From: Nitrospirota bacterium
GTDB taxonomy: Bacteria > Nitrospirota > UBA9217
Length of the DNA stretch: 64,000 nucleotides
Direction of reading: 5' to 3'
NCBI GenBank assembly: GCA_963796285.1
Contig: CAWCKW010000003.1
Span: forward strand, 1 to 64,000
Below, piece after piece: positions 6,021 through 61,844 of this stretch. Numbering within the stretch: position 1 is the first letter of the stretch; the number at the start of each line of letters is the position of its first letter. The position numbers and the translations under genes were made by a program. The notes under the pieces were generated by a model, which worked only from the letters and a program-made list of their open reading frames with translations, made no database searches and had not been told where the DNA came from.

Positions 6021-7041
6021 TTACACAAATATCTTCTCCGGCATAAACAGCACCTCGTCGCGCATTACGTAATACGCTGCTCTCGCCAGCTTGTGCGCAA
6101 GGGCGTTGTGCGCGGCCATGAAGTTGGTTTTCTGCATCTTGCGATTATAGTATGTCCTTGCCTGGGTGTAGCTGCGCCGGGCATGCTCGGCTGCCTCGGA
6201 ATAGGCCCATGCAAGATACTTGTTGCCGCTCTTTTTGTTCCCTTTGCCTTTTACCTTGTCGTTGCTGAGCCATTTGCTTGAAACTTTCCGGCAGTATAGA
6301 TACGTAGTTGCCAACCTTGGCGAAGCGGCTGATCGGCCCGGTCTCCAGCATGATGGTCAGCGCCAGAATCTTGCCGATCCCGAATACGCTCTGCAGCTTC
6401 TCGTAAGGTGGCTTCAGCTCTACCTTATTTTCTATCACTGCCTCGATCTTTTTGATCTGGCGCGTCAGAAAATCGATGGACTCTTTGCTGACCATCCCCG
6501 CCAGAGCCAAGTCAGCGCTTCCCGCAAGAAAGGGGGTCACTCGATCCTCGGTCAGTATTTTTACATCGCTCGTCTTGAGCTTAAATCCGTTGTTGCGGCT
6601 GAGGATGTTCTGCAGGCTCACGATGAGTGAGGTTCGCAGTCTTACCAGGTGCATGCGTTTTCGCAGAAGATCGCGTATCGGCCGGTCTTCCTTCGGATAG
6701 ATGTAACCCTCGGGCAGAATCCCCAGCCGCAGCATTTCTGCCAGCCAGAAGGCGTCGTGCTGATCGTCGGCGAATTTTAGCCCGGTGTATTTCTTGATCG
6801 CTGCCGGATTGGCCAGATGAACGTGGTAACCTTCACCCATCAGCAGGTCAACCAGCCAGTACCAGTTATAGGTCGATTCCACAACGATACCGGCGATGTC
6901 ATTCTTGTACGGGTTGAGCGCCGCCTGAATACGCTCTCGATCATTCGGCAGCTTCTGTTTATATACCCGCTTGCCGGATTCGTCGATGATGCCGAGATAA
7001 CTGTTGCTTGAATGTAGATCTAATCCAGTGTACAATTTCAT
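6021..7041 (-). CDS. IS110-family transposase/recombinase; frameshift near 6300
   Basis: 'YTGLDLHS', 'VESTYNW', 'DDQHDA', 'GIGKILALTI'. C-terminal 'KKSGNKYLAWAYSEAA' in 6021-6314. Confidence 0.92.
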
Positions 7042-7132: not shown

Positions 7133-7693
7133 TCAAGTCTTGCGGCTTGACATTCCCCGCTTCCGGGCTTTTTTATAAACCGCCTGACTCTCCTTTACGA
7201 TAAAACCAATTTTCCTCTTCGGCTTTTCCTCAACTTCTATCAATTGACGAATCGCTTCAAAAACGATCTGGAACTGCCCGTCATATTTCTTCTCCAATTC
7301 AGCCAGCTTCCGGGCCAGGTCCTTATGGGACGCGATCATCTCCCTCAGCTGTGTGAATGTTCTCATGATCTGAATGTTCACCTGGATCGCCTTGGGGCTA
7401 TTCAGAATGCTTGACAGCATCGCCACCCCGTTTTCCGTAAATGCGTACGGGAGATACCTCCTGCCTCCCCATCTTGAGGTGCCAAAATGGTACTTCAAGT
7501 TGTCGAACTCTTCTTTCGTCAGCTGTACCATGAAATCATCAGGAAAGCGATCAAGATTTCTTTTGACCGCACGCACCAGCATCTTCGTTTCAACGCCATA
7601 GAGCGCTGCCAGATCGCTGTCCAGCATCATCTTCTGGCCGCCGATCAACAAGATCTTCTTTTCAATCACCTCTATTGGCACGAGTGCTTTCAT
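7133..7693 (-). CDS. ORF6N (KilA-N-like) domain protein
   Basis: '[27 protein letters not shown]', '[16 protein letters not shown]', C-terminal 'KRKIGF'. Confidence 0.9.
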
Positions 7694-9430: not shown

Positions 9431-9958
9431 ATGAAAGAGGAACTCACAAATAGGAATGGCTCGATCCTGACGCTGGTTCTGGCAGGCGGTGCTCTGGGGG
9501 CCGGGTTGGCACTGGCACTGGCGCCGAAACCGGGAAACGAGATCAGGAAAGACCTTAGACGGGTAGCCGACCGTTTCTCACAGGCCGTTGATATTGGCAA
9601 GGACCTCTATGGAGAGAGCCGGGTGTTTGTCGGCAAGGCCGTTGAAGCGAGCAAGAAGGCCTACGTGGAGGAAAAGCCCCTTGAGCCCATAAGAATCGGG
9701 ATGCGCTCTCTCCTGGTGCCGATCCTTGCGAGCGGTATCATCGGGGCAGGCATTGCGCTCCTGCTGGCGCCGAAGTCGGGAACCGCGACCAGGAATGATT
9801 TGAAACGGCTCGCAACGACCACGCGGGAAGGCGTTGTTTCCGCTATTGACGCGGGCAAGGACCTCTACGTGGCAGGCAAAGACGCGATAACCGGGGCAGT
9901 GGAATCAAGCAAGATACCGTATGTCGAAGGGAAAAAGGATATTATGCATGCAGTGTAG
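9431..9958 (+). CDS. YtxH-domain protein (two repeats), copy 1
   Basis: Two 'GAGxALxLAPKxG' YtxH motifs; paralogue at 47920. Confidence 0.85.
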   Translation: MKEELTNRNGSILTLVLAGGALGAGLALALAPKPGNEIRKDLRRVADRFSQAVDIGKDLYGESRVFVGKAVEASKKAYVEEKPLEPIRIGMRSLLVPILASGIIGAGIALLLAPKSGTATRNDLKRLATTTREGVVSAIDAGKDLYVAGKDAITGAVESSKIPYVEGKKDIMHAV

Positions 9959-9975
9959 CAGGGTGTAGGGTTCAC

Positions 9976-10031
9976 TTGAGGTGCCAAAATGGCACCTCAA
10001 GTTGTCGAATACCGCCATAGAGCGCTGCCAG
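9976..10031 (-). pseudogene. internally deleted relic of an ORF6N gene
   Basis: Joins near-identical matches to 7473-7507 and 7595-7612. Confidence 0.7.
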
Positions 10032-10042
10032 TCTGCGTCATC

Positions 10043-10640
10043 TTTCTTGCGTGCCCAAGAAAGGTGACAAAGCATAAGTAAGCCCCTGCCAGGAAGTCCA
10101 CGATCCTTGTTTTTTTTCTGCACCCCAGTTCACAGGTCCGCGCAGTCATGCTTTGATCTTGCCAATTATCATCCTTTTCTGCTGTCGCAGCGCTCCACCC
10201 TCACCCTTTAAAAAGGGTTCGGCCGCGTCTGCCTGGTCTTGTGGGTTAATTATCTTTATCGAGCATCGCATGTTGTGCGCGAACCTGTTCATGGGATGCA
10301 GGGGGTTTTGGAAAGGCAGTTGGATTCGGGTAAGGATCTGCACGACGGTTTTCTTTCAGCCCCCCATGCGAAAATTTAGGCAGGCGACTGAGTCCGAGGG
10401 TAAAGCATTTCGGACTGTCTGAGCCCGACGCAGGGCGAGTTTCCGAAATGTACTGAGGACGATTGAGCATGCCGTAAAGAATTTTCGCCGGGTGCCCTTC
10501 TTTGGGTCACCTTTCTTGGGCAAGCAAGAAAGGTGACAAAGTATAAGCAAGTCCATGCCAGGAAGTCCACGATCCTTTTTTTTTCTGCACCCCAGTTCAC
10601 AGTTCCGCGCAGTCATGCACTGATTGTTACCAACTATCAG
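10043..10640 (-). repeat. about 1.4 units of the ~428-bp structured repeat, inverted
   Basis: Reverse complement of the 15-16.5 kb array units with a different linker. Confidence 0.9.
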
Positions 10641-10763
10641 AAGCTCCGACCCCGCATGTCCCCGGAGAAGATCCATAACTTTCATTTGCCCTGATAAACC
10701 CAATCACCTATAATAGGAATAGACAGCATATCACTCCAATACCATCAACATCTCAGGCATGCA

Positions 10764-13700
10764 ATGACATCCCGCAAAAAAATACTCCTCTGGTCCTCCG
10801 GCATCGTTGGCCTGGTAACGGCTTTGCTGATCGCTGTTATCGTCCTGGCGCCGATGTATCTGGACTCTCAGGGAGTGAAAAACAAGATCCAGGCCGCGGT
10901 TTCGGAAAAACTCGGCGGAAAAGTCTCCTATGAAAGGATCGACGTTTCGCTCTTTCCCCTGCCTCACGTGATCATCAGGCAATTATACCTGGCCTATCCC
11001 CGGACATTCAGCGGTCAGCTGCAGTCCATCACTATCTATCCCCACCTGTTCCCGCTCTTCAGGGGCAAGCTCCAGTTTTCGAAGATCCAGGTCCAGGAGC
11101 CGGACTTCACCATCGTCCTTCCCGCCGTGGTATCTGAATCGACGCCTACGGCTCCGTCTCTCGAGGAAACGAAAGCGAATATCCGGGCCGTGCTTGGATA
11201 CCTGCAGACGATCGGCCCCGGTCTTGTCGTTGAAATGGACAACGGCAAATTCCTGTTCAAACGGAGCAACCGGGATTTTCTCTCCCTTCGGAACGTGACC
11301 GTGCATTTCAACGCACCGCCCGGCGAGATGAAACTCCTGGTCAAGGCCGGCACGGACCAGTGGGGGGATTTTAGCCTGAGCGGGGCATACTCCTTTACCG
11401 AAGCGCAATCAGAGGTCAGGGATCTGACCGTGTCCCTGGGCCACTCTTCCCTCCAGGACTATTCCGGTGTCCTGACCTGGGACCGGGTCCCGCGTTTTGA
11501 GATACGTTCGGGCAGGGCCGTGCTCGCGCTGCAGGAGATCTTCCAATGGCTTTCGTCATCGGAAAGCCTGGTCCCCTTTATGAAGGAGATGTCGTCGTTA
11601 AAAGGTCAGCTCACCATTCAGTCCATGCGCGGAGAGGGATCGGTCTCCGATCCAAAGAAATGGCGCTTGAGGCTGACCGGCGAGGCCCGGCATATTGAGA
11701 TCGAGTCGCCGCGGATCCCCGCACCCGTGATGATCGATACGCGTTTTATCCTGGAAGATAACCTGCTGGAGGTATCCGAACTGTCTGCCCGCCTGGGGAC
11801 GTCTACCCTGTCTCACGTGTCCGCGCAGCTTGTCGGGAGAAACGATCCCGAGCTCGAGATCCGGAGCGGCAACGCCGCGATCAATATCACCGAGGTCTTC
11901 GGCTGGCGGCAGTGGCATCCGGCATTGGAGCATTCTCTGCAGAAGGTCGACACGCTTGCCGGCAACTTCACCCTTACCTCGTTGAAATTGAAGGGGCCCC
12001 TGTTCCGGCCTGAGGAATGGAACATCAATGCCGGCGGCATGGTTGACCATATTGTTTTTAATTCTGCGTTCTTGCCCGGACAGCTCGGCCTGGTCAAGGG
12101 TAATTTCAGTTATGTTCCGGATAAACTGTCCTTTGCCATGAAGGAAGCCACGATCCTGGATTCGTCATTGACCGGCACAGCCGTGGTGAGCGGCGTTACC
12201 GATACCCTGCAAAGCATCGACCTGACCGTAAACGGGCAATCAGGCAGAAAGACCCTTGATTGGGTTTTTAAGGACCTCGAGCTTCCAGCCGCGCTGATGG
12301 TAAAGACCCCCCTTACCCTTGTTGATTCCCATCTGGTCTGGCAAAGGCAAACGGGCACATCCTTCAGGGGAACGGCATCCGTGGCAAACGGGCCGACGTT
12401 CTTCGTGGACCTTTCCCAGCACGGCCGGGACCTCGCGATCCGCCGTCTCTTGATCCAGGACCAGGAGACCAAGGCGTCCATTACTTTGAATTGGCAGAAG
12501 CAGGCAGCGGACTTCTCCCTGTCCGGTCTTCTGGCGCAGGCCACGCTGAGCAGAATATTCGAGCAGGGAAACTTCGGCAACGGGACCGTGCACGGCGATC
12601 TTCATGCCCTGGTCCGCACGGACCAGCCGCTCCGGTCGCGGGCAACGGGCACCCTTGCGGGGAATGACATTTTCATCCCCTGGGGCATGCCGATCCCGAC
12701 CATGGTGGACAAGTTCTCCCTCCATGCCGACGACGACGTGATCACCATCGACTCCGCCGACGTAACCTGGGGCACACATCATTACTCCATGTCCGGGGCC
12801 GCAACCACCTCTGACGAGGGGATCGCCTTCAGCATGGCCCTCACGGCGGACGGCATCGAGATACAGGCGATCCAGCAGGCCCTGGAGCAGGCAGGCACGA
12901 AAAGCACCGATCGACAAGCCAGGCCCTTTCCCATGCCGCCCATACGAGGCGACCTCCGTGCCGACTCTGCGTACGTTAAATTCGGACGCTTTACCCTTGC
13001 TCCCGCCCACGCCGTCATAACCGTGGATCCGGACAGGGTGAATATGGATTTTACCGACACCAGGACCTGCGACATTTCACTGCCGGGTTCACTCCTTATT
13101 TCCAGGGAAAGCATGTCTTTTACGTTCACCCCCACGGCAAAGAAAGAAACCCTGGGTTACACGATCTCCTGTCTAACCGGCATGGACGTTCATGTTACCG
13201 GCGAGTATGACCTGAACTCGAACTTCCAGGCGCACGGAACGGGGAAGGAGATCCTCTCTTCCCTGGAAGGCAGAGTGGATTTCAAGGCGCGGGACGGCAA
13301 GATCTACCGTTATCCGATCCTGCAAAAAATATTGTCCGTGTTGAGCGTGCTTGAAATATTTCGCGGAAGGATCCCGGACCTGGGGGGAAGCGGCTTCCCC
13401 TATCATTCCATGGCAATACGGGGAGATATCCACAAAGGAATATTCACGCTGGAGAAAGCCTACATCGGCGGAAAGTCTCTGGATATCATCGCTGAAGGCG
13501 AGATCGATCTGGGGAAGCAGAAGTTGGACGTCGTCGTGCTCGTGGCGCCTTTCTCGACGCTCAACTGGATCATCAGGAACACCCCGTTCCTCGGCAAGAT
13601 CATGGGCGGCACGCTGATTTCGATCCCGGTCCGGGTCTCCGGCGATCTGGCGAACCCCAACGTCGTCTTTCTCTCTCCCACGGCCGTGGGCTCGCGGATC

Positions 13701-13790
13701 CTGCGTCTCCTGGAGAACATCATCATGCTGCCGGTCGACATCATCTCGCCGATATTGCCGAAGGAAAAGGAACAGGAAAAGAAGAAGTGA
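10764..13790 (+). CDS. AsmA-like (bridge-type lipid transfer family) protein
   Basis: N-terminal TM anchor, beta-rich 1008 aa, AsmA_2-like C-terminus 'IPVRVSGDLANPNV'. Confidence 0.8.
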   Translation: MTSRKKILLWSSGIVGLVTALLIAVIVLAPMYLDSQGVKNKIQAAVSEKLGGKVSYERIDVSLFPLPHVIIRQLYLAYPRTFSGQLQSITIYPHLFPLFRGKLQFSKIQVQEPDFTIVLPAVVSESTPTAPSLEETKANIRAVLGYLQTIGPGLVVEMDNGKFLFKRSNRDFLSLRNVTVHFNAPPGEMKLLVKAGTDQWGDFSLSGAYSFTEAQSEVRDLTVSLGHSSLQDYSGVLTWDRVPRFEIRSGRAVLALQEIFQWLSSSESLVPFMKEMSSLKGQLTIQSMRGEGSVSDPKKWRLRLTGEARHIEIESPRIPAPVMIDTRFILEDNLLEVSELSARLGTSTLSHVSAQLVGRNDPELEIRSGNAAINITEVFGWRQWHPALEHSLQKVDTLAGNFTLTSLKLKGPLFRPEEWNINAGGMVDHIVFNSAFLPGQLGLVKGNFSYVPDKLSFAMKEATILDSSLTGTAVVSGVTDTLQSIDLTVNGQSGRKTLDWVFKDLELPAALMVKTPLTLVDSHLVWQRQTGTSFRGTASVANGPTFFVDLSQHGRDLAIRRLLIQDQETKASITLNWQKQAADFSLSGLLAQATLSRIFEQGNFGNGTVHGDLHALVRTDQPLRSRATGTLAGNDIFIPWGMPIPTMVDKFSLHADDDVITIDSADVTWGTHHYSMSGAATTSDEGIAFSMALTADGIEIQAIQQALEQAGTKSTDRQARPFPMPPIRGDLRADSAYVKFGRFTLAPAHAVITVDPDRVNMDFTDTRTCDISLPGSLLISRESMSFTFTPTAKKETLGYTISCLTGMDVHVTGEYDLNSNFQAHGTGKEILSSLEGRVDFKARDGKIYRYPILQKILSVLSVLEIFRGRIPDLGGSGFPYHSMAIRGDIHKGIFTLEKAYIGGKSLDIIAEGEIDLGKQKLDVVVLVAPFSTLNWIIRNTPFLGKIMGGTLISIPVRVSGDLANPNVVFLSPTAVGSRILRLLENIIMLPVDIISPILPKEKEQEKKK

Positions 13791-13810
13791 TTACGCTTCA
13801 GGGTTCAGGT

Positions 13811-14099
13811 GGGGGTAAAGCTATTCGATTCTGACGTTCACCTGCGCCGGGTAGCTCTGACGCGAAAGACGCGCATAGCAATGCTGCACAGATCGAAATG
13901 AGAGAACAAGACAAGGCAGACGCGGCCTCACCCTTGTAAAAGGGTGAGGGTGGAGCGCTGCGAGACCTGCATATCAGGGCGGAGGCACTGTTAATATACC
14001 TGGCATGCTGCGCGTCTAAGCGATGAGCTGCCCAAAAAAATCGATGCACACATGGAACAATCGCCAACTTAGATAACCTTCAGAAGACAGCTTGTTAAT
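13811..14099 (+). repeat. dispersed structured repeat, type B, copy 1
   Basis: Homologous to 61512-61844; long hairpin 13849-14033 followed by an A-tract. Confidence 0.85.
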
Positions 14100-14100
14100 C

Positions 14101-14216
14101 TCGCCGTCGGATCCTCTGCGCCAACAAGGCAAAAGACCATCACATCAATCTTGCCGGTTTTGTAAAAAGAGCAGAACGACACGTTTCGCAAAGCAACCCG
14201 GGACTATAGGACGTCC
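14101..14216. repeat. dispersed repeat type C, copy 1
   Basis: Shares TCGCCGTCGG..CCT.TGCGCC, CACATCAATCTTGCC and GCAACC.GGGA with 39241-39356. Confidence 0.7.
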
Positions 14217-14253
14217 CTAAAGATTTCCATCTCCAAAATTTTCCCAGCTCTGT

Positions 14254-14808
14254 TTATCCTGCCCGATGTCCGTGAAGGTGACCCTGGCGCGCATCCCGCA
14301 TAAGCTCAATGAACTTCGTTCGCTGTTCCGGCGTCAGTTTGGATTTTATCTCCTCCCGCGCCTTTATTGCATTGAGCATCATGGCGGTCTTGAAACCCTC
14401 CATCTTTTTTACCTGCGACTCAACAGCGCTCATATCCACGCTGTCCTTGCGGAGATACTCGCGAAACTCCATTGCCGCGATCTTGAGCTCCGCGCGCTTT
14501 TTGATCTCGTCCTTCCTCAGCGCGATACTGATATCATGTATCGCGGCCTTTTGGGCGGCAGTGAGGTCGAGCTGCTTGAGCGCATGCCATAGACGCCGGC
14601 CATGATGACCAGAGCCCGGGCCTCCTCTTTCAGACCAATGATGTGATGCCGGCCCGTCACACTGCTGTACCGGATCGCTGTCTCCCTTGACCCCATCGGG
14701 GTATCCTTTGTCGGCTGCGGATACCTGCGCGGCTGCTATGAGACCCAGACACAAGAAGCCTGCGGCAAGAAGAAGACCGTACATCCTTACCCTTATTACT
14801 TTGATCAT
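14254..14808 (-). CDS. Spy/CpxP-family periplasmic chaperone
   Basis: Signal peptide and two LTxxQ motifs (LDLTAAQ, LTPEQR). Confidence 0.85.
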   Translation of the reverse strand: MIKVIRVRMYGLLLAAGFLCLGLIAAAQVSAADKGYPDGVKGDSDPVQQCDGPASHHWSERGGPGSGHHGRRLWHALKQLDLTAAQKAAIHDISIALRKDEIKKRAELKIAAMEFREYLRKDSVDMSAVESQVKKMEGFKTAMMLNAIKAREEIKSKLTPEQRTKFIELMRDARQGHLHGHRAG

Positions 14809-15042
14809 TGTTGTTTCCTCCTTTGGAGTGATTTTGATGTTTCAGATATCCGTATGGACTGCCAAGCTTCATTTCCTTCGGCATGTTGCTGATGGTATAG
14901 ACCCGACCTGCTGGAAAAGGTTTAATAGACGCTTTCAATTCCGGTGACGTGCGGGGTTAGGGTAAAAAACTCTCATGTTTTTTGAGGGCCACGCCTGACG
15001 CACGGGTAAGGCCGAAGCTTTAGTTCTTTGCTTTTCCAGAGG

Positions 15043-16555
15043 CCCCTGCATCCCATGAACAGGTTCGCGCACAAGCATGCGATGCTCGATAAAGATAGTT
15101 AACCCACAAAACCAGGCAGACGCGGCCGAGCCCTGTTTACATGGCGAGGGTGGAGCGCTGCGACAGCAGAAGAGGGTGATAATTGGTAACATCAGTGCAT
15201 GCCTGCGCGGACCTGTGAACTGGGGTGCAGAAAAAAAACAAGGATCGTGGACTACCTGGCAGGGGCTTGCTTATGCTTTGTCACCTTTCTTGCGTGCCCA
15301 AGAAAGGTGACCCAAAGAAGGGCACCCGGCGAAAATTCTTAACGGCATGCTCAATCGTCCTCAGTACATTTCGGTCCGGAAATGCTTCACCCTCGGACTC
15401 AATCGCCTGCCTAAATTTTCGCATGGGGGGCTTCAAAGAAGTAAAGACTTAAAGCTTTCGGTTTTCCAAAACCCGCTGCATCCCATGAACAGGTTCGCGC
15501 ACCAGCATGCGATGCTCGATAAAGATAATTAACCCACAAGACCAGGCAGACGCGGCCGAGCCCTGTTTACATGGCGAGGGTGGAGCGCTGCGACAGCAGA
15601 AGAGGGTGATAACTCGTAACATCAGTGCATGCTGCGCGGACCTGTGAACTGGGGTGCAGAAAAAAACAAGGATCATGGACTACCTGGCAGGGGCTTGCTT
15701 ATGCTTTGTCACCTTTCTTGCGTGCCCAAGAAAGGTGACCCAAAGAAGGGCACCCGGCGAAAATTCTTCACGGCATGCTCAATCGTCCTCAGTACATTTC
15801 GGTCCGAAATGCTTCACCCTCGGACTCAATCGCCTGCCTAAATTTTCGCATGGGGAGGCTAAACGCGATATCCTCAGAGCTTTTGCCTTACCAAAACCCC
15901 CTGCATCCCATGAACAGGTTCGCGCACACGCATGCGATCCTGGATAAAGATAATTAACCCACAAGACCAGGCAGACGCGGCCGAGCCCAGTTTACATGGC
16001 GAGGGTGGAGCGCTGCGACAGCAGAAGAGGGTGATAACTGGTAACATCAGTGCATGCCTGCGCGGACCTGTGAACTGGGGTGCAGAAAAAAAAACAAGGA
16101 TCGTGGACTTCCTGGCAGGGGTTTGCTTTTTCTTTGTCACCTTTCTTGCGTGCCCAAGAAAGGTGACCCAAAGAAGGGCACCCGGCGAAAATTCTTCACG
16201 GCATGCTCAATCGTCCTCAGTACATTTCGGTCCGAAATGCTTCACCCTCGGACTCAATCGCCTGCCTAAATTTTCGCATGGGGAGGCTAAACGCGATATC
16301 CTCAAAGCTTTTGCCTTACCAAAACCCCCTGCATCCCATGAACAGGTTCGCGCACACAGCATGCGATGCTCGATAAAGATAATTAACCCACAAGACCAGG
16401 CAGACGCGGCCGAGCCCATGTTTACATGGCGAGGGTGGAGCGCTGCGACAGCTGAAGAGGGTGATAATTGGTAACATCAGTGCATGCCTGCGCGGACCTG
16501 TGAACTGGGGTGCAGAAAAAAAACAAGGATCGTGGACTACCTGGCAGGGGCTTGC
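15043..16555 (+). repeat. tandem array of ~428-bp structured units (3 full plus 1 partial) with variable linkers
   Basis: TGCATCCCATGAACAGG begins at 15047, 15477, 15902 and 16330 (periods 430, 425, 428). Confidence 0.95.
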
Positions 16556-16622
16556 ACAACAACAGAAAATAGAAAAGCCGCGTGTTTATTCCGTTGATCT
16601 CGTTCTCATTGCCCCTGATCTC

Positions 16623-17105
16623 TCATTGCCGCGCTAACGCAGGCTCTTTCTCAAAAATTATGACGGGATAGGAGTGATATATTGTTTCTTCTTTTACTTT
16701 CCAGCCCAATCTTGAATAGAACGGAACAGCAAGAGCGGCATCGGTGCTAAACAAAAACAATTTGCGTATTTCCAATTGTGCGGCCTTCTGCTCTATGGCC
16801 TTGACCAGGCTTGAGCCGATCCCTCTCCTTCTCCATGGTTCGGCCACGTGCAGGCTGGTAAGCCATGGCGTCAGGTCGCTTCTCGTCTCCATGTCGAAGG
16901 CCTTGAGAGAAACAGTGCCTATCGGTTCTCCTGCTTCGAGGGCGACGAGGGTAAGGGGCAGACTTTTTTTATTGACCCTCTCCCGGAGAAGGCCTTCAAA
17001 ATCCTGCAGCGTTGCCCCTGGATACAGATATGACCACTCGTTGTATATCCAGGCGGCAAGGACCGGTATTGTTTCCTGGTGATCTCCTAAATATTGAATA
17101 TCCAT
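16623..17105 (-). CDS. GNAT-family N-acetyltransferase
   Basis: 'LHVAEPWRRRGIGSSLV' acetyl-CoA motif and 'FYSRLGW'. Confidence 0.9.
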   Translation of the reverse strand: MDIQYLGDHQETIPVLAAWIYNEWSYLYPGATLQDFEGLLRERVNKKSLPLTLVALEAGEPIGTVSLKAFDMETRSDLTPWLTSLHVAEPWRRRGIGSSLVKAIEQKAAQLEIRKLFLFSTDAALAVPFYSRLGWKVKEETIYHSYPVIIFEKEPALARQ

Positions 17106-17414
17106 TTACGCACTGTTCTTTCATGGTAAATTCATTCGTAGTATATGCGTCGGCAAGAGGATCGTACCCATAACGCTTATTTCCTTAATGTCAAAATCTA
17201 ACCACAGAGTCCACAGAGAACTGCTTGAATTTAAGGGATATGAACTTCCTTGGCATCGCCTCTCCCTCTGTGCTCCTCCTATTTCATTCTCACGGCTCTT
17301 CAACCATGAGAGCACTATGCGTCGTATTGAAAGAAAGGCTCAATGTGTTCATGTTTACCACCGAGCGTTCCTCAGTGCACTCTGTGGTTTCATACTTTCC
17401 TCTTTGCACGATCA

Positions 17415-18161
17415 TCACTTTACTTCGTTCGCCGGGATAGCGTTGATCAATTCCCGGGTGGTCACGACCGTAGCCTGCCGGGGAAAAACCTTGTCCATCA
17501 AAACGCGGTTCACTTCCGCATCCGGGTCCGCGCAGGCATCTGACACGACCACGATGAAGTAATCCCAGTCAGCGGCCCAGCGTACCGTGGAAAGGACCAC
17601 GCCGCTCGTCGAGATGCCGAGCAGTACGAGGGTGTTGATATTTTTTGCGCGCAGGATCGTTTCCAGATCAGTGGTGGAAAAAGCCCCGACACGGCGCTTC
17701 GTGACCACGATATCTCCGGGTTCAGGCGCGACCCTGGCATGGATCTCGGCCCCGGATGTGCCTTCACGCAAGCGTCCCGATGCTTTTAAATTGCCGAAGA
17801 GCTTGTTGTGCGGATCGACCTCAGGGTAACCATCGCGAAAGCGCACAACGACATAGACAATGGGCAAATGGGCTTGCCGCGCCTTCTTGAGTATGGCGCC
17901 TGCTCTGTCCAGCAGGGGCGCTTGCATCTTCTCAGGCAGCATGCTGACGATATCATTCTGGTAGTCCATGATCAGTACCGCCGTTCTCGTTGTATTGATC
18001 GTAAGCGCCGGTTCGATCAATACGGCTGTTCTGGCGCTCGTATTGGCCGACCCCGGCATGCCGGCGCCTTTCTGCGTGTCCTGCTTGTCCACGGCGGCGA
18101 GCGCGTTCCCCGCTATGGACAGTGACACAACCAACAGTGAGATCATAACAATAGTGCGCAT
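17415..18161 (-). CDS. isochorismatase-family hydrolase with signal peptide
   Basis: 'TAVLIMDYQND', 'KRRVGAF', 'GISTSGVVLST'. Confidence 0.85.
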   Translation of the reverse strand: MRTIVMISLLVVSLSIAGNALAAVDKQDTQKGAGMPGSANTSARTAVLIEPALTINTTRTAVLIMDYQNDIVSMLPEKMQAPLLDRAGAILKKARQAHLPIVYVVVRFRDGYPEVDPHNKLFGNLKASGRLREGTSGAEIHARVAPEPGDIVVTKRRVGAFSTTDLETILRAKNINTLVLLGISTSGVVLSTVRWAADWDYFIVVVSDACADPDAEVNRVLMDKVFPRQATVVTTRELINAIPANEVK

Positions 18162-18331
18162 GTATCATACCCTCCTTCGCGAAACAGGAACGATAATAAC
18201 TTCTTACACTGCAATCGAATGGCTTTTGGATGTCGCGTCCGGCGATTGCCGGAGATTTATACAACCGGGTCCACCATATCCTGCGTGAAGTCTGCAATAA
18301 CCAATGCTGCCTGTGGAAAACACGTGCATGC

Positions 18332-18586
18332 TTAGTTCTCCGGGGGCGTATCTGCAGGCGCGGATTGCAGACAACTATTGAGACAACTGGTTAATGTGTC
18401 CTGGCTCTCCTGCACGCACTGAGCGCGCGCCTGATCAGGCTCTTCACCGGGTGGCGGGCAGGTTACATCCCTTGATGCTTTTTCGGCGGCACATCTTGTT
18501 TGGCACTCAGCGTTGGTCTCTGCGGAGCCCACACGAGGCAAAAGCAGCAACGTTCCGAATATGACGAGAATGAGGATTGATCGCAT
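18332..18586 (-). CDS. small secreted Cys-rich protein
   Basis: GGAGG RBS before MRSILIL, signal peptide, 6 Cys. Confidence 0.6.
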   Translation of the reverse strand: MRSILILVIFGTLLLLPRVGSAETNAECQTRCAAEKASRDVTCPPPGEEPDQARAQCVQESQDTLTSCLNSCLQSAPADTPPEN

Positions 18587-18854
18587 TGTCCCTCCTGTCG
18601 GGTTTGCAGGTACGAACCCTGCCGTTTTACAAGACAATTAAAACCATTACATATTATTTTATCATGACCTGATCGGCAAAACCAGGTTTTTTTGGCATAG
18701 TGTGCAGGATGAAACCCGCACGTTAAGCATAAGGATGGGGCATCCGCGTCGCGCCCGTATCGGCCCCGGCGACTCCTCAGATAACATGATATAATTCAGG
18801 CATGGACCCAAATCGACAAAGATTGTAGAACAGCAATTCCTGAAGGAGGTCAGT

Positions 18855-19784
18855 ATGCCGCAGCGTTCCCTGCTGGTCGCCGATGACATCGAGAACCAGA
18901 CTGATGCCGGGAAAAGACTGTCACAGGCGATTTTCAGTGTCGCCTCTTCGTTGGCGCAGCATTTGAAAACCGTTGTCGAGCTCCTGTATGTGGAAGACAG
19001 CAAGTCCTATCCCCGCGCCAAGATCGATCCCGCCGGCATCCAGGCATGGCATGCCGGACATCAGAAGACCCTCGAAGAGGCCGGCAGGCGGCTCCAGGTC
19101 CCTGTTCGCTGTTCACTGGCGAGCGGCTCTCCCGCTGAGCAGATCTTGACGAAACTTCAGTCCCGCCCTGCACCTGAACTCGTGATCGTAGGCACCCGGG
19201 GCCTGAAAGGATTGAAGCGCTTGTTCATCGGAAGCGTCGCTGAAGAAGTGATCCGTTACGCCAGGCGGCCCGTGATGGTGATCGGGCCGAATGCCCGGAA
19301 GAAAGAACTCTTGCTCGTCGGACGGAAGCAGGCGGGCATCCTCGTCCCGACCGACCTCGGCAAGAACAGCAGGGCCGCCGAGCTCTATGCAATCTCTCTG
19401 GCCAAGCGCATCGGGGCCCGGGTGGTCCTGTTTCATTGTCTTGGGGACAATTACCACGCCATCGTCGACCAGAGCATGGCCTCCGGCATGATCCCGTTCA
19501 ACATCGAAAACGTGCTGGACGAGCTTCGGGAGGATGCCATCAAGTCGCTCAAACAGAAAGCCGGTAATTTTCAAAAACACGGCGTTCCCTGTGAATATAG
19601 GATCGAAGAAAGCGTGGCCCTGTCCTCCTGCGCCGTTCATCAGGAGAGTGACCAGGGCTATTCGTTCATAGTCATGGGGACCCACGGCAGGAACGTCCTG
19701 CTGCAGGCCTTTATTGGAAGCACTGCCCGCGAAACGATCCTGAACGCCCCGATCCCGGTGATCACGGTCCATGCCGGGAAATAG
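18855..19784 (+). CDS. universal stress protein (tandem Usp domains)
   Basis: Two 'GxxG....GS.A' Usp motifs; AGGAGG RBS. Confidence 0.9.
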   Translation: MPQRSLLVADDIENQTDAGKRLSQAIFSVASSLAQHLKTVVELLYVEDSKSYPRAKIDPAGIQAWHAGHQKTLEEAGRRLQVPVRCSLASGSPAEQILTKLQSRPAPELVIVGTRGLKGLKRLFIGSVAEEVIRYARRPVMVIGPNARKKELLLVGRKQAGILVPTDLGKNSRAAELYAISLAKRIGARVVLFHCLGDNYHAIVDQSMASGMIPFNIENVLDELREDAIKSLKQKAGNFQKHGVPCEYRIEESVALSSCAVHQESDQGYSFIVMGTHGRNVLLQAFIGSTARETILNAPIPVITVHAGK

Positions 19785-19919
19785 CATTTCCGAAGTGCGC
19801 GAAATGCATGATAGCATTATGTCAAAATCCAACCACGAGTTCACAAAGAAGGGCTGAAGAATGGCTGAGGTTATTTTTGAATGGGGGGAACCCCGGGGAC
19901 TGTGTGTCTCAAGCCTGAA

Positions 19920-20739
19920 TTATTCCCCCTGCTGATCAGGGAGAGATCTCATGGAATAGAGGATCTGCAGGATACTGAGAGCGGTTAGGATCCCCAAGAG
20001 CGCGATCCCGGACAGGACGAACGCGAGGGCCCCTGCCGCAATGGCAAGAACAGCCAGCATATACTGCGGCAGGACAAAACGAAGCGCCGCATCAGGCGGT
20101 TTGCCGGGGTATGAAGAGAGAAAGATCGTATTCAAGGAAAGCATGCAGACCCCTGCGGAGGCACTCAGGATAAAGGCCTCCTGGACCGGCATCATCGCGT
20201 ACGGCGCCAGCACGATCACCCGCTTGACCCCGACGGCAATGGATACGATACCCAGCGTCAGCGGCAGGTGAGAATACAGCCATTGCTGATATGCCCTGAC
20301 ATGATCCCTCGATAGGAAGGACAGCCGGTATGTGTTGTCCGGCGCGATAATATTCAGCCACCAGGATGAGACGGACCGCCGCATACGACAGGGCAAAACC
20401 AATGGAGCTTTGTCCAAGGGCATGCGGCACGTGCACGATGAGGGAAGCCACGGCCACGATCTGTGCCATCGTCAGAAGCCTGTGGACAAGGTCATCGGAA
20501 TCAAATCTGGTCAGATAAAAGGTCTGGCCGACCCAGGCCCACCAGACAGGTACAAGGAGAATGGTGAAATGCAGCGATCCTCTCAATGAGTAATCGCTCG
20601 CGAGGTTTCCAGCCAGCTGGGATATGGCCGCGACAAAAACAAGGTCATAGAAGAGCTCCAGCCAGGTCGCATGCCTCTCCCGTTCCTCAGCAACATCGGT
20701 CCTGAGCCTCGGCGGTTTGATGAGTCCCTTCGTGAGCAT
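19920..20739 (-). pseudogene. ltrA: low-temperature requirement A (LtrA)-family membrane protein with apparent internal deletion and frameshift
   Basis: 'ATWLELFYDLVFVAAISQL' at the N-terminus. C-terminal 'WLYSHLPL' lies in another frame and the central part seems missing. Confidence 0.7.
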
Positions 20740-20775
20740 GCTATCTCATGACCTGTCAGTATTCCACCGTACTTT

Positions 20776-21020
20776 GGGTAACGCTCCGGGATTCTGACGT
20801 TCGGAGGCCCCTGCATCCCGTGAACAGTCCCGCGCACAAGCATGCGCAAACAGTCATGACCGATGCCATCACAAAAACAGGCAGACACGGCCGAGCCCGT
20901 TTGAACGGGCAAGGGGAAGTGCTGCGATATTCGAAGATGCTTATTGACGGCACTGGCAATGCATGCCTGCGCGGACTGTGAACCGGGGTGCAGAAAAAAA
21001 AGAAAAACATCGTGCGCTGC
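20776..21020 (+). repeat. diverged single copy of the ~185-nt hairpin repeat
   Basis: Hairpin 20811-20993 plus A-tract, with compensatory changes relative to the array. Confidence 0.85.
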
Positions 21021-21192
21021 CTGCAAGGAGTCGTCTTTGCTGATGATCCCTGACGTTCGGCCGGCTCGCTGCACGCAAACGTGAAATGTTATCCGCTTGT
21101 TATGGAGATGATTCAATTCCTTTAACACAGCGGAATGGGTGGCTAAATCATGTCGTATCAGGATACCGGGTACATGCTTACTTATGGATCGT

Positions 21193-22101
21193 CTACTTGT
21201 GCTTTATGAACGTTCCGTTCCGGTATTCTTCGAACGCGACTTCCAGCTCCTCATCGGTGTTCATCACGATCGGGCCGTACCAGGCTACCGGTTCGTTGAT
21301 GGGCTTGCCTGATACGAGCAGGAAGCGGACCGGCTCGCCCTGGGACGAGACGGTCACCTGATCGCCGTCGCTGAAAAGAACCGCCGTGCCGTTGTGGATG
21401 TATTTGTCCCGCTTCATGTCGAAATAGTTTTCACCCAGGGCATCATAGGCATAGGGGTTCTTCTCATTGCAGAAGACGCCCTTCCCGCCGATCACGTAGG
21501 CGAAGACCGTATGGCCGCGCGGTGTCTTGTGCATGAACTCGGAAAGCGCCGGGAGCGTCACATCGAGATACTCAGGATCGATGACGACGTCCCTGACCGG
21601 GCCCTGTTTTCCCTCCATGGTCCCGGCGATGACCTTGACCTTCGCGCCGTTCTTCATCACGACCTCCGGCACCTGCGCGCTCTTGACATCGCGGTACCGG
21701 GGGTCCATCATCTTGTGGGATTTGGGAAGGTTGGCCCAGAGCTGAAATCCCTCCATGACCCCGTTGTCGTCTCCCTGCGGCATCTCCTGGTGGATGATGC
21801 CGCTCCCCGCCGTCATCCACTGCATGTCTCCCGACGTGATAACGCCCTTGTTGCCCATGCTGTCGCCGTGCTCCACGTCGCCCTTGAGCACGTACGTGAT
21901 CGTCTCGATGCCCCGATGAGGGTGCCAGGGAAAGCCTTTGATGTATTGATACGGATCGGTGTTTCGAAAATCATCGAGCATCAGGAACGGGTCGAACAGC
22001 GGGACCTCGCTGTTTCCGAACACCCGCCTGAGATGGACCCCTGCTCCTTCGAGCGTAGGCCTGCTTTTGAACACTTTCCTGATCTTTCGGTTTTCCGTCA
22101 T
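21193..22101 (-). CDS. pirin-family protein
   Basis: 'GFPWHPHRGIETITY', 'WMTAGSGIIHQE', 'QLWANLP'. Confidence 0.95.
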   Translation of the reverse strand: MTENRKIRKVFKSRPTLEGAGVHLRRVFGNSEVPLFDPFLMLDDFRNTDPYQYIKGFPWHPHRGIETITYVLKGDVEHGDSMGNKGVITSGDMQWMTAGSGIIHQEMPQGDDNGVMEGFQLWANLPKSHKMMDPRYRDVKSAQVPEVVMKNGAKVKVIAGTMEGKQGPVRDVVIDPEYLDVTLPALSEFMHKTPRGHTVFAYVIGGKGVFCNEKNPYAYDALGENYFDMKRDKYIHNGTAVLFSDGDQVTVSSQGEPVRFLLVSGKPINEPVAWYGPIVMNTDEELEVAFEEYRNGTFIKHK

Positions 22102-23436: not shown

Positions 23437-23629
23437 ATACGCCTCCTTGATTGCATACTTTTTTATCACAACGGGTTTGAGCGTATCACGCTTGCCTTTA
23501 TAGTATAACAGAACAGCAGGCCATTCATGTTTAGGCCGGATCACTCCAGGGTCAGGAAGGGGCAGGAGTTCAGAGTTCGGAGTAAAAAAGGGGCCTGGAT
23601 AACCAGTCCCCTGTGTCCATTTTCCCAAA

Positions 23630-23657
23630 GAAAAAGCCCCTCATCTTCAAGGGGCTT
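23630..23657. terminator. hairpin matching the tmRNA-downstream terminator repeat
   Basis: AAAAAGCCCCTCATCTTCAAGGGGCTT, also near 51752, 53528 and 54662. Confidence 0.7.
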
Positions 23658-24477
23658 ATGCGTTACTTGGATTTAAATAAAACTCGAGTGGATCTTCCGT
23701 TCGATCGTTCTCTGACTTCAATTTCGCTGCTAAATTTTACGGCTCTTCAGTTTAAATATTAACACCACGTATGCTATGTTGGTAACCGGCATGAGCATGT
23801 CGGCAATAAAGGCCCCGATCGCCCCCGTTCTTTCCAGCGCCAAGAAATAGTTAAAAGAAATAATTAAATAAGGAACAGCAAAAGGGATCATTATCATCCA
23901 TAAACGGGGAAAGAAAGCTGCAACATTCATTGCTGAAGAATCTTGCGATTGGTTCTGTTGAGACCGGCTGTTTCCCCTGTCCGCACTATGATGCATGTCC
24001 TGACTCCTCTCGGCGCAGCAGTAAATATTTCCTCTGTCGGTATAACTATAACTATACATATATTAAATGTCAAGACAATTAAAATTGGTTATATTCAGGG
24101 ATATACGAGCGTCCTTCTATTTGAAAGCGAGTGAATATGTCCCGGCATGTCTCCCGTTATCAGATTAATGCCGGCCCGACTTGTTGCATGGACAAAAATG
24201 ACATAAATCAAAACATTGATAGTTTAACGACCCACACAAAAGTCAGAAGACCCATATTTTTGAATATACCCTTAACCTACGCCGACAATTTATATCTGTC
24301 CATAAATCTTGCCCATGCGTGTGATCAATAAAATGGTTCTATCCTTCCTTGAACATCTTTACTGTTCGACTAATTGTGCGATATGTTTAATTTGCAATAC
24401 TTATAAAATAGGTTATTATAGTTTGTATCCAAACTGGATAAATCTGCGATGCAACGGAGATCGGCTACACCAAAACC

Positions 24478-51337: not shown

Positions 51338-51749
51338 TGAGAACCTCCTGTGCAATAGTGCATCGGACTCTTATGACATTTAAGGGCATTTCCTAGTGAT
51401 TCCAACCCGAGCGGCTCGAAGACATCGGGATCGGGGAGGTTGTCAATTTCTTCAAAGAATAAGTCCTTGAGCCAGCAGAACCGCCCTCAGGACCCAGTTT
51501 GGGGCCTTTGTTGCACCCGTTGCGTACCGCCCGGTTACGCTCGTTGCTAATGCCGAGAATTTTCCTTTGAAAGGCTGAAAGGTCGCTCATGGTTCTCCGG
51601 GATGTTGACTGTCTGGAAGGGATGCCACATAGTGATACTGACCGATTGAACAGTAAGAAGAATATAATAGAATTCGCTAAATTGCAAGCAGAGAGGTGGT
51701 TGGTGTCCAGAAAAGAGGTGAGAGATTGCCGGTGTATGCGACAACGACG

Positions 51750-51905
51750 AAAAAAAAGCCCCTCATCTTCAAGGGGCTTTTGCACTTCATTTAACTTTGT
51801 TGGATGGTGAAATGGGGCGGCGGACATCAAACAGATTGTCCAACCTCATGGAATCATTTCAGTATTTTCAATGCTATTTTTCGACTTACCCCTAAAGCTA
51901 CCCCA
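51750..51905 (-). mobile_element. degenerate att site: copy of tmRNA 3' end and terminator plus arm-like repeats
   Basis: Homologous to 54661-54735, followed by TACCCCTAAAGCTACCCC. Confidence 0.7.
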
Positions 51906-53283: not shown

Positions 53284-53521
53284 GCGGCCTTTCGTTAAAG
53301 CAAGTTTGCTAAAATCATGGCGCGCTGAAATGAGTGTGCTAAGGCGAGGTTTCCGGCTGCTACTGTATTATAAACAAAGGAATATGTCAAAGACATTCAT
53401 GAAATTTTGACGCACCCTGAGGCTACTCATACCTTAGTGCGTCGAAGGGATTAAGGTGCCTTGGACCACGTATATCGCATCTTACCGCCTGTCGCCGTTA
53501 GTGTTTGGCTATCACAACTGA

Positions 53522-53682
53522 AAAAGAAAAAGCCCCTCATCTTCAAGGGGCTTTTGTACTTCATTGGACTTTGTTTGATGGTGAAATGGTGGGGCGGCGA
53601 CCATTTAATAGGTTGTCCAAGCGCCCTGATTTACAGTACATCTCACAATGGGAATTTAACTCGTACCCCCAAAAGTACCCCA
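53522..53682 (-). mobile_element. degenerate att site: copy of tmRNA 3' end and terminator plus arm-like repeats
   Basis: TGGTGGGGCGGCG versus tmRNA TGGTGGAGGCGGCG; TACCCCCAAAAGTACCCC at 53664-53681. Confidence 0.75.
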
Positions 53683-54308: not shown

Positions 54309-54721
54309 ACTATACCTGCCTTGTCCAGCAAATTGAAAAGCGATTTCTTAATCTGCCGTTATTATATCCACAATGACGCATATTTCAAGACATTTCTGCT
54401 GCCAAGCATTATGGTTTCCATCACGACTTCGCTACGGGCGCTATTAGCTTTCGGATATCAGCAATGGATTCACTTGTTGACGGTCGCAGTGAAGCAGATA
54501 AAGTTAAAGTAGCTTTCATGGTTGAGGGCGTTCACATACGGGTCTGCCCTGGGGATATTATCCAGGCCGTGGACCTCGCTGATCCAGAGCCGCCTTACCA
54601 AAGGCCTGAACAGAAAGGCAACAACCGGAGAATCAAGTCCACTGTGCCCATTTTCCTAAAGAAAAAGCCCCTCGTCTTCAAGGGGCTTTTGCACTTCATT
54701 GGTCTTTGTTAGATTGTAAAT

Positions 54722-55075
54722 TGGTGGAGGCGGCGGGAATTGAACCCGCGTCCGAAAACCGTCAGCCAGAAGCTCATACATGCTTATCCCCGCTTTTATT
54801 GCTCTCGCTTCATCCGGCGCCTTGGGGAAAGCTTCGGAATCGGCCAGCCCGGTTTTTCTTATCTCCCCGCCCCGGACGGCGTCGGGAAGACCAGCCTGGT
54901 TTTTGACATCTCTGCGATCGTTCAGGCGCCAACCGCGAGACGCGCTACCTATTTAGGCGGCGTATGCCAGTTCTTGATTATTGGCAGTTGATCTTTACCA
55001 TGTGTTTAACGAGCCCCATGGTACCTCGGCATGCAACTCCTGACCTCTAAATCCCCGTCGAAGCCTGTCGCCCCC
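54722..55075 (-). ncRNA. ssrA: tmRNA
   Basis: 5' GGGGGCGACAGGCTTCGACGGGG, 3' TTCAATTCCCGCCGCCTCCACCA, tag ANNQELAYAA*. Confidence 0.97.
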
Positions 55076-61312: not shown

Positions 61313-61511
61313 GGAAGAATTATACTATGCCTGCATGCCGGGCGCAAAACAATTCCTGCACACCGTAATGAAGGTTCGTATAGGAAGGGACAAAAGATGA
61401 GGGGCAAAGCTGTATCAGTATTTCATGCGTTTGTATTAGTATGAGAGCGTTAATGATCAGGATACGAAGCTATTCCTGCTATTCTCCGCGCCTCTGGGGA
61501 CATGCGGGGTT

Positions 61512-61844
61512 GGGGTAAAGCTATTTGATTCTGTCTTTCCCCTGCGCCGGGCAGCTCTGACGCGAAAGACGCGCATAGCAATGCTGCATTGATCGTAGTT
61601 ACGAGTACAAGACAAGGCAGACACGCCCTGCACTCGCGACGTGGCGCTCGTAAACGCTGGGTGCAGGCGGCCTCACCCTTTTATAAGGGTGAGGGTGGAG
61701 TGCTGCGAGACCTGCATATCAGGGCGGAGGTACTGTTAATATACCCGCCATGCTGCGCGGCTGAGCGATGAGCTGCCCAAAAAAAACGGTGCACATCTGG
61801 GGTAAGTACCAACTTAGATAACCTTCATAAGACAGATTGTTAAT
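61512..61844 (+). repeat. dispersed structured repeat, type B, copy 2, with a ~45-nt hairpin insertion
   Basis: Homologous to 13811-14099; extra segment ~61622-61667. Confidence 0.85.

Follow-up and report, generated by a model that had tools for sequence, protein, structure and literature searches.

Is a tandem array of long structured units in a bacterial genome a single non-coding RNA gene in several copies, or is it something else? This question is raised by positions 15043-16555 (plus strand) of the window, that is, of the whole 64,000-nt stretch analysed here, from contig CAWCKW010000003.1 of a Nitrospirota bacterium. The genome of the window (G000) consists of 13 contigs, in whose numbering the window is C3:1-64000. 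A first-pass annotation, made from the sequence, described the array as an unnamed, multicopy, structured element that amplifies in tandem, and suggested either an RNA array with specificity carried by the linkers or a BIME-like mosaic mobilised in trans. We find that the array is not one 428-nt RNA gene in tandem, but an amplified block of two fold-conserving, gene-less repeat modules, here named A and B-C. As the mosaic alternative would have it, the modules are also met separately elsewhere, differently ordered or next to different partners. The array is confirmed and is unusual in its size, and its most interesting part is the head of module B-C, which is conserved across phyla with covariation of three strands.

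Structure of the tandem array

Tandem Repeats Finder reports a period of 428 and 3.5 copies at 15043-16555, with 95% matches and 1% indels. The units start at 15047, 15477, 15902 and 16330 (blastn with unit 3), exactly as first annotated, and the fourth unit comprises positions 1-225 only. The layout is (A - tail - B-C - linker) three times, followed by A and a part of the tail; at its 3' end (16555) the array stops at ...GGGGCTTGC. Partial copies of the unit break at the same points, and this defines the modules A, B-C and the linker.

The array is non-coding: the unit lengths (430, 425 and 428) are not multiples of three, the frame shifts between copies, and none of the eight open reading frames (ORFs) over the repeats has a Pfam match, for which reason a coding reading of the units is rejected. 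An assembly artefact, which the first-pass annotation had allowed for, is argued against by the divergence of the array units from one another (4-7%) and by similar arrays with other copy numbers at five further places in the window genome and in a second genome of the genus. In four of twenty sequencing runs located, all available as assembled contigs, no short contig crosses the array.

No Rfam family matches the repeats. Rfam at the gathering threshold finds only the transfer-messenger RNA (tmRNA) in the whole window, and no match falls on the repeats at E<=10 in the region 9800-21300, nor at E<=1 at 14 loci of four phyla. Thus the initial description of an unnamed, multicopy, non-coding, structure-conserving element stands.

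Module A (unit positions 1-185) has imperfect terminal inverted repeats of ~26 nt and is followed by an A-run and a tail of ~30 nt. In copy 1 (15046-15230, +) it folds into a 185-nt branched hairpin closed by CTGCATCCC.../...GGGGTGCAG; the A-run and the tail (CAAGGATCGTGGAC...) at 15231-15279 (+) travel with the module. Copies 2 and 3 are placed by their long hairpins at 15476-15659 and 15901-16085, and copy 4 with its A-run and truncated tail occupies 16329-16555 (hairpin 16329-16515), all on the plus strand. Thus both the long hairpins, at four positions, and the A-run of the units were correctly described. In 27 copies of module A, 6 of the 35 predicted pairs show double changes. The wobble cells are strongly asymmetric, 66 G-T vs 6 A-C, mostly at three fixed positions, and hence the plus strand is the folded one. 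The earlier claim that the plus strand of the array folds holds for module A; it is not confirmed for B-C, where the wobble test (10 G-T vs 20 A-C) gives no folded strand.

The linkers are homologous. Linker 1 (15428-15475, 48 nt) is a small hairpin ending in CCAAAACCC, linkers 2 (15855-15900) and 3 (16283-16328) are 46 nt long and differ by 1 nt, and the copy near 10.3 kb has a longer linker of 61 nt; the 1-nt difference and the longer third linker are as noted at first (the three array linkers are on the plus strand). All 20 linkers between C and A, taken from the window genome and its sister genome (G004), follow one pattern, GGGGC-AAA, a variable loop, AAAGC-TTTGCC-TTTCCAAAACCCC, and fold into a small hairpin, with an insertion in the long forms (60-61 nt). 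Similar linker variants are shared between arrays and between the two genomes. Therefore the linker is a weakly constrained module and not a spacer, and the idea that the linkers carry specificity is abandoned. A CRISPR-like array of repeats and spacers is ruled out both by the homology of all 20 linkers and by the lack of a cas gene among the neighbours; an integron-like reading is rejected as well.

Conserved fold of module B-C

Module B-C is a 150-172-nt element (unit positions ~235 to 383) with a sharp left end at GTCACC. The array contains three copies on the plus strand: 15280-15427 (168.5 bits with the family model), 15708-15854 (174.3 bits) and 16136-16282. They open with heads at 15280-15327, 15708-15755 and 16136-16183, each beginning with a 13-6-13 hairpin. 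The near-perfect hairpin of the first-pass annotation is in fact a perfect 13-bp GTCACCTTTCTTG-CGTGCC-CAAGAAAGGTGAC in each full unit, and the nested domain, which is the body of the module, is indeed closed by the helix CGAAAATT/AATTTTCG. The best-conserved part of the family, an apical hairpin of ~25 nt (AAACTCGCCC-loop-GGGCTCAGACAG), is missing from all B-C copies of the array. These are thus deletion forms of the family consensus, with scores of 168-174 bits vs 208-219 bits for full copies of the window genome.

The helices of B-C covary. In 34 distinct copies, 95.5% of the cells of our own six-helix structure are paired, and 10 pairs and 39 cells have both sides changed, although this structure was derived from the sequences tested, which favours it. 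These values were not attained in any of 500 shuffles, and pairing in slid controls was 25-50%. RNAalifold missed manually found helices on this alignment, and the pair counts were made on our own structure. A covariance model built from the B-C copies and used to search diverged genomes detects full-length and much more diverged B-C elements outside the family. There are 17 matches of 55-103 bits in G069, which represents a second Nitrospirota family, and a score of 67 bits is reached in G065, a Burkholderiales metagenome-assembled genome (MAG). In 30 diverged copies from the two Nitrospirota families and the Burkholderiales MAG, nearly every pair of the four body helices occurs in two to four Watson-Crick types (one pair, for example, is GC in 10 copies, AT in 7, TA in 7 and CG in 3). 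The totals are 1093 Watson-Crick, 8 G-T and 23 A-C cells, in an alignment that was fitted to the model and leans toward it. Covarying helices are seen in both B-C and A, on structures that were derived from the tested sequences themselves.

B-C has hardly any G-T pairs: of the 1181 cells in which both sides have a letter, 8 are G-T, unusually few for a functional RNA. In our opinion, this fits a constraint at the level of DNA, or on both strands, better than it fits a typical RNA.

Distribution and turnover of the modules

When 60 relatives are searched with one unit by blastn, matches come from 29 of the 36 further genomes that belong to the family and from none of the 24 genomes that represent 11 other families. 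The matches are nearly always A alone (1 to ~205/220), B alone (~228-329) or B-C (~228-382), many per genome. A genome holds from ~1 to >100 copies, and there are nested insertions and copies situated at the ends of contigs. Public records containing the hairpin name Nitrospirota MAGs. Plasmids and phages (blastn) and viral contigs (pattern scan) gave no match. Outside the genus, B-C is usually followed by a linker and then by another long hairpin, D, whose end is likewise an A-run.

In the window genome the units form three clusters of ~10 kb (blastn of the unit). The cluster on C3 comprises 10034-10639 (-), the array (15047-16555, +) and 20812-21031 (+, 72%). The first cluster on C12 comprises full or partial units at 1141671-1142548 and 1148270-1149309, and the second, at 2028159-2028889, 2035290-2036367, 2038116-2038948 and 2040017-2040782. 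The inverted block at 10034-10639 contains a partial A, a full-length B-C of the 172 type (10363-10537, 208.4 bits), the 61-nt linker, a module A (10118-10301) and a head only (10037-10068). The match near 21 kb is a solitary diverged module A with its A-run and tail (20811-21035, +, 72% to the array copies). Each of the arrays at C3:15047, at C12:2035290 and in the sister genome begins with a module A and finishes inside an A or its tail. The orientation of the blocks relative to replication is not biased (6 of 10 on the G-rich strand).

Comparison with the sister genome, which is of the same genus and has coding flanks 89-93% identical to those of the window genome, shows differences in both occupancy and copy number. 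Between the genes of the LTXXQ and GNAT families the sister genome lacks the array, and contains a repeat of the type found at 13808 and a miniature D hairpin. The former is a further repeat module, F (13808-14099, +), which is repeated in the window at 61508-61844, and whose reverse complement often lies directly upstream of module A in relatives. Before the AsmA-like gene, the sister genome has 2.7 units in the plus orientation vs 1.3 units in the minus orientation in the window. In another comparison, an element of ~400 nt consisting of B-C, linker and D fills the lolD/lolE-like spacer of another genome (G018) and is missing from the same spacer of the window genome. For supposedly orthologous copies the flanks align at only 50%, and the orthology is doubtful.

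A B-C copy at C12:702799-703420 is split at unit position 278/279 by an insert of 441 bp, in which an ECF sigma gene is represented by its 3' half and a CMD/AhpD-like gene by its first 21 codons. In the head piece of the split copy the CMD/AhpD-like ORF goes on in frame and to the expected length, but with a TAG stop (…ANCKPCL*VTFLGHASKGDEDEEI…). None of the simple models of site-specific recombination explains this copy.

The head of B-C

The head, the first 48 nt of B-C, consists of the 13-bp hairpin with its 6-nt loop, followed by CCAAAGAA and then GGGCACCC. It is nearly the same letter for letter in MAGs of Nitrospirota, Burkholderiales, Latescibacterota and Gemmatimonas, and where it is changed, the three strands change together. 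Attached to other bodies, it was found in MAGs labelled Rubrivivax, Rhizobacter, Curvibacter, Burkholderiales, Betaproteobacteria, Latescibacterota and Gemmatimonas. The head alone has several copies in MAGs of Latescibacterota, Gemmatimonas and Betaproteobacteria. In five of the genomes so labelled the head pattern occurs 2-16 times on different contigs (reversed control, 0), and thus mis-binned Nitrospirota contigs are no explanation. The covariance model gives 11-144 matches in these genomes, palindromic matches being counted on both strands. Two records labelled otherwise (L039, L082) carry the full Nitrospirota type and may be mis-binned.

Three kinds of coordinated changes are seen in the heads. 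Firstly, outer stem positions are compensated (GTC/GAC, GCC/GGC, CCC/GGG, GTT/AAC). Secondly, the loop pairs with the 3' flank, namely with six bases after CCAAAGAA, and this helix covaries across phyla in the combinations GTGCC/GGCAC, GCGCC/GGCGC, GCGGCC/GGCCGC, TCGCC/GGCGA, CGTGC/GCACG, CGTC/GACG and GTGCG/CGCAC. Finally, the hairpin is followed by a purine run that mirrors the one in the 3' arm, and both change together. The mirror types are AAGAAA/AAAGAA, AAGAAAA/AAAAGAA, AAAGAAAA/AAAAGAAA, A5/A5 and A6/A6. The mirror is exact in 21 of 25 heads parsed by eye, and the other four differ by one base. Heads of a third family, fetched as a test of this mirror rule, have AAAGAAAA with AAAAGAAA in three of four cases and one substitution in the fourth; they do not have the helix between the loop and the flank.

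An automatic count on 343 entries gave the mirror only in 129, both mirror and direct in 23, direct only in 12 and neither in 179. It is noisy because the palindrome parses in both orientations, and it includes wrong-orientation noise and duplicate entries. In this count AAGAAA occurs most often with its exact mirror (117 entries, the next partner having 23), as do AAAGAAAA (8 of 12), AAGAAAA (4 of 4) and A6 (14 of 16), and the exact mirror is thus the most frequent partner for four of the six run types of the second arm. The partner of A5 is A5 in 9 of 17 entries, and the one AAAGAAA entry is paired with AAAAGAAA, a sequence other than its mirror.

A mirrored purine run behind a pyrimidine-purine hairpin is how a class II (purine-motif) intrastrand triplex is laid out in Holder et al. 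2015 (PMC4666352). The order CCTTTCTTG - loop - CAAGAAAGG - GTGACCC - AAAGAAGG, present in all 14 heads of the window genome and also in heads of other phyla, corresponds to the pyrimidine, purine and reverse-Hoogsteen purine domains of that class. With the third block mirroring the second in the 21 of 25 parsed heads and in three of four from the further family, A.A-T and G.G-C triads are possible, and a C-G.G to T-A.A change at one stem level is the change predicted for a triplex. The array-type head, with 6 triads and loops of 8 and 8 nt, is outside the limits given for class II in the same source (stems of 6-15, loops of 1-6 nt), whereas a variant of family f3, with 8 triads and loops of 6 and 6 nt, is inside them. 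The source also notes, with reference to earlier work, that RNA does not form purine-motif triplexes, and it links intrastrand triplex motifs to rearranged loci.

Other repeats are combined with the head or nested in the module in relatives. Small repeats lie inside some B-C copies, and one of them fits the pattern of the TMECO triplex repeats considered below. At several loci (L054, L046, L083 and others) motifs of the TMECO/BoxC pattern are inserted behind the word GATAGA in the apical loop of the body. At four loci (L030, L065, L166, L171) a structured insert of ~105 nt (ATCCCTGGCGAC...GTCGCCGGGAGG...) is situated inside the head, between CCCAA and GAAGGGCACCC. In another Nitrospirota family (locus L164, G038:C18) a head variant, GTTACTTTTCTTT-N6-AAAGAAAAGTAAC, starts right after the CCA end of a tRNA-like sequence. 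Five loci of Burkholderiales MAGs (L020, L064, L066, L087, L090) have several copies of a CCGTTCGCGCTGAGCTTGTCGAAGCG-type repeat upstream of the head, mostly at contig ends; this is another repeat family combined with the head.

Origin of the array

The explanation that we favour, with moderate confidence, is that the array is built of DNA repeats that have no genes and depend on their fold, and that were amplified when the A copies on either side recombined. Most arrays can be written as (A-BC)n-A, a form expected from recombination between directly repeated A copies and not from the 428-bp unit as one self-amplifying element, as had been proposed. Modules A and B-C, distributed separately, would have come to lie as A - B-C - A, and (A-BC)3-A would then have arisen from the direct A copies, either by unequal homologous recombination or by slippage in replication. 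The modules themselves belong to mosaic intergenic repeats of the whole lineage, gained and lost between related genomes, and would depend on a function supplied in trans and not encoded nearby. Selection would keep their intramolecular fold, for B-C most likely acting on single-stranded DNA. The head combines a pyrimidine arm, a purine arm and a mirror purine run, in the order of a class II triplex, with the helix between the loop and the 3' flank. Such DNA, like the BoxC/TMECO triplex repeats, would be prone to recombination. What is observed comprises the array, its modularity and distribution, the covariation, the mirror rule and the differences between genomes in occupancy and copy number; mobility in trans, an action as single-stranded DNA, the triplex itself and recombination as the amplifying step are inferred.

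The third strand of the predicted triplex would reach its partners only with the lower six pairs of the hairpin open, and for this reason two alternative states are assumed. A more specific and doubtful possibility is that the head is a cross-phylum recognition module, a switch between the 13-bp hairpin and a triple-stranded pseudoknot on single-stranded DNA (or RNA), read by a widely distributed enzyme that would copy or move the attached element. If this were true, the three-way covariation from C-G.G to T-A.A would be comparative evidence for a selected intrastrand triplex in bacteria, of a kind that we have not seen reported, and the tandem arrays could come from rolling-circle-like copying and not from simple unequal crossing-over.

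A number of observations weigh against the favoured explanation. No mobilising gene was found: no copy was seen to have a gene inside or beside it, and the only recurrent neighbour proteins in 95 loci are spurious ORFs in the repeats. The flanks of the two Y1_Tnp matches in the window genome share no sequence with the unit, and two genomes that carry the repeats, G004 (89% complete) and G009 (98% complete), have no Y1 match. Comparison of filled and empty loci showed neither an exact insertion site nor a target-site duplication, as the spacers have diverged too far or the flank lacks conservation. The triplex is sterically incompatible with the full 13-bp hairpin at once, since only 2 nt link the base of the stem to the third strand. 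The same mirror rule would also fit a pyrimidine-motif triplex on the complementary strand, possible in RNA, and the same register would fit an RNA pseudoknot with an A-rich loop along the stem. Conserved unpaired motifs (AAACTCGC...GCTCAGACAG) together with stems covarying across phyla also fit a functional RNA, and the wobble asymmetry of module A is RNA-like. Finally, a contig of 123 nt from a soil RNA library matches 16072-16195 with 4 differences; it carries no strand and may be due to DNA carry-over.

The last of these observations are also the case for the strongest alternative, that A and B-C are multicopy structured non-coding RNA genes or domains of the plus strand. The array transcript would be cut into units, and the head would be an H-type pseudoknot with its A-rich loop along the stem. 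The unpaired motifs lie among helices that covary in two Nitrospirota families and the Burkholderiales MAG, and the order loop-stem-loop, with a first loop of 1-2 nt and a long A-rich last loop, fits the pseudoknot topology. However, no promoter-like site lies in or before the array (0 sigma-70-like promoters in 14800-16700 vs 1.6 expected), no Rfam family matches, and the array copies are devoid of the best-conserved apical hairpin. The scarcity of G-T pairs in B-C, the wide range of copy numbers per genome, the nested insertions and the copies at contig ends also disagree with RNA genes, and the RNA library may hold DNA. On balance, we consider this alternative possible but unlikely.

The modules could also be cis-acting parts of mRNAs similar to REP/BIME, ERIC or Correia elements, that is, co-transcribed stabilisers, processing sites or insulators, the array being an exaggerated case. 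Every copy seen is intergenic, and there is a bias in orientation: in 38 of 53 loci the opposite strand carries the longest left-flank ORF (at least 100 aa), with crude ORF calls and loci that are not independent. Of the nine blocks of the window genome, five are antisense to both neighbours, one is sense to both and three are mixed. However, the folded strand of module A is antisense to both neighbours of the array, and therefore co-transcription would give the wrong strand. Moreover, only one weak terminator-like site was found vs 3.0 expected, and the neighbouring genes are unrelated in function. Thus this alternative is improbable.

Lastly, it is scarcely credible that the units are decayed protein-coding DNA or an artefact of repeat assembly: in its favour is the head copy that lies in frame inside the CMD/AhpD-like ORF next to the ECF sigma gene at C12:702799-703420, and against it are the ORFs without Pfam matches, indels that shift the frame, changes that are compensatory in helices and not in codons, and the recurrence of arrays with diverged units at six places in the window genome and in the second genome.

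Candidates for a mobilising partner were considered as well. Among five RAYT-like loci (~300 aa) in relatives, one has a B-C copy ~100 nt upstream; given these loci, the flanks of the Y1 matches and the two genomes without them, a link to Y1/RAYT is not consistent. No IS110-family gene is adjacent to the repeats, genes or remnants being 3-8 kb from two array clusters and a 100-bp remnant being near the third, and this family was rejected as an adjacent partner. In agreement with the first-pass annotation, no cas, reverse transcriptase or transposase gene adjoins the array, the nearest transposase gene being ~8 kb off. The latter is an ORF of 298 aa of the IS110 family (DEDD) at 6145-7041 (-), beside an ORF6N/Rha-like gene at 7133-7693 (-). 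A copy of 73% identity, interrupted by stops, is at C12:1137834-1139362 beside another array cluster, and the 100-bp remnant is at C12:2027400-2027505 beside the third cluster.

Other features of the window

The arrays lie among small accessory genes, which encode isochorismatase, nitroreductase, FMN reductase, GNAT, universal stress protein and NUDIX proteins and frameshifted alcohol dehydrogenase and LtrA. The LtrA-family gene, beside the solitary module A, is split in two overlapping ORFs, 19920-20423 and 20092-20739 (-), which cover profile positions 1-117 and 223-352; it is probably frameshifted.

The tmRNA gene is at 54722-55075 (-, 191.8 bits). Its terminator-proximal region, AAAAAGCCCCTC.TCTTCAAGGGGCTTTTG and ~40 nt, recurs as three to four copies in a 3-kb stretch and as a single copy at 23.6 kb (23605-23661, 51727-51823, 53501-53597 and 54636-54732). 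The copies resemble the att-type repeats that tandem integration of islands at the tmRNA gene would leave.

Duplication of segments within the window is indicated by two pairs of dispersed repeats, 9290-9663/47792-48152 and 7750-7894/51567-51710, which are 83-89% identical and in which the beginning of a YtxH-family gene is included.

Comparison with known repeat families

No description of this family in print was found in full-text searches by the letters of the hairpin and by Nitrospirota repeats; the matches to the letters were two unrelated eukaryotic papers, and none of the 12 listed of 610 matches for the latter concerns repeats. The family is a marker of the most strongly rearranged regions of these genomes. 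Assemblies of uncultured Nitrospirota break at its repeats, which also give rise to spurious ORFs, and a covariance model would help annotation.

The REP/BIME elements of enterobacteria and pseudomonads are extragenic palindromic mosaics and tandem clusters, mobilised by RAYT, non-coding and variable between strains. The family described here is likewise non-coding and variable, and its palindromic units, combined with other motifs, form mosaic and tandem clusters in extragenic DNA. However, its units are 150-430 nt long vs 20-40 nt in REP/BIME, and no cognate Y1 (RAYT) gene flanked by the repeats was found.

The BOX elements of Streptococcus pneumoniae have the structure boxA-(boxB)n-boxC with a boxB of ~45 nt. 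Both families are modular, intergenic and able to fold. In BOX, the inner module is multiplied in tandem between fixed outer modules, whereas here the multiplied block holds two modules; the sizes are different and the sequences are not related.

The Correia/NEMIS and ERIC elements are miniature inverted-repeat transposable elements (MITEs) with structured cores. Like these, our repeats are gene-less, multicopy, hairpin-forming and variable between relatives, and module A shares the terminal inverted repeats in imperfect form. However, neither target-site duplications nor ends matching a transposase were found, and B-C, sharp as its left end is, has no inverted repeat at the other end.

The closest analogues of the head are the intrastrand triplex repeats BoxC/PIT/TMECO (Hoyne & Maher 2000, as cited in Holder et al. 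2015, PMC4666352; REP/BIME are also summarised in the introduction of the latter). These repeats and the head share the class II order, in which a pyrimidine block is followed by its purine complement and then by another purine block that mirrors the latter. Both families are multicopy, intergenic, conserved across distant bacteria and situated at rearranged loci; the same source counts TMECO in 262 proteobacterial genomes and describes TMECO loci as more rearranged between E. coli strains. On the other hand, the head is A/T-rich (TTTCTT / AAGAAA / AAAGAA vs CCCTCNCCC / GGGNGAGGG in BoxC/TMECO) and has only 6 triads, and its 8-nt second loop contains the lower half of the 13-bp hairpin. It also has the additional covarying helix between the hairpin loop and the 3' flank, and it forms the 5' end of a structured element of 150-172 nt, its triplex being a prediction from sequence. 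The proper TMECO/BoxC pattern, CCCTCNCCC N3-6 GGGNGAGGG N3 GGGNGAGGG, does not fit the head; it has 10 matches elsewhere in the window genome (e.g. C3:83099 and C12:1696098), none of them in the array.

Intergenic mosaic repeats and triplex-prone repeats are thus known, and what selects them is an old open question on which this family gives a handle. Judged by its sequence and size, the family is a member of neither group: its architecture resembles that of the BIME and BOX mosaics, and its head resembles the BoxC/TMECO motifs.

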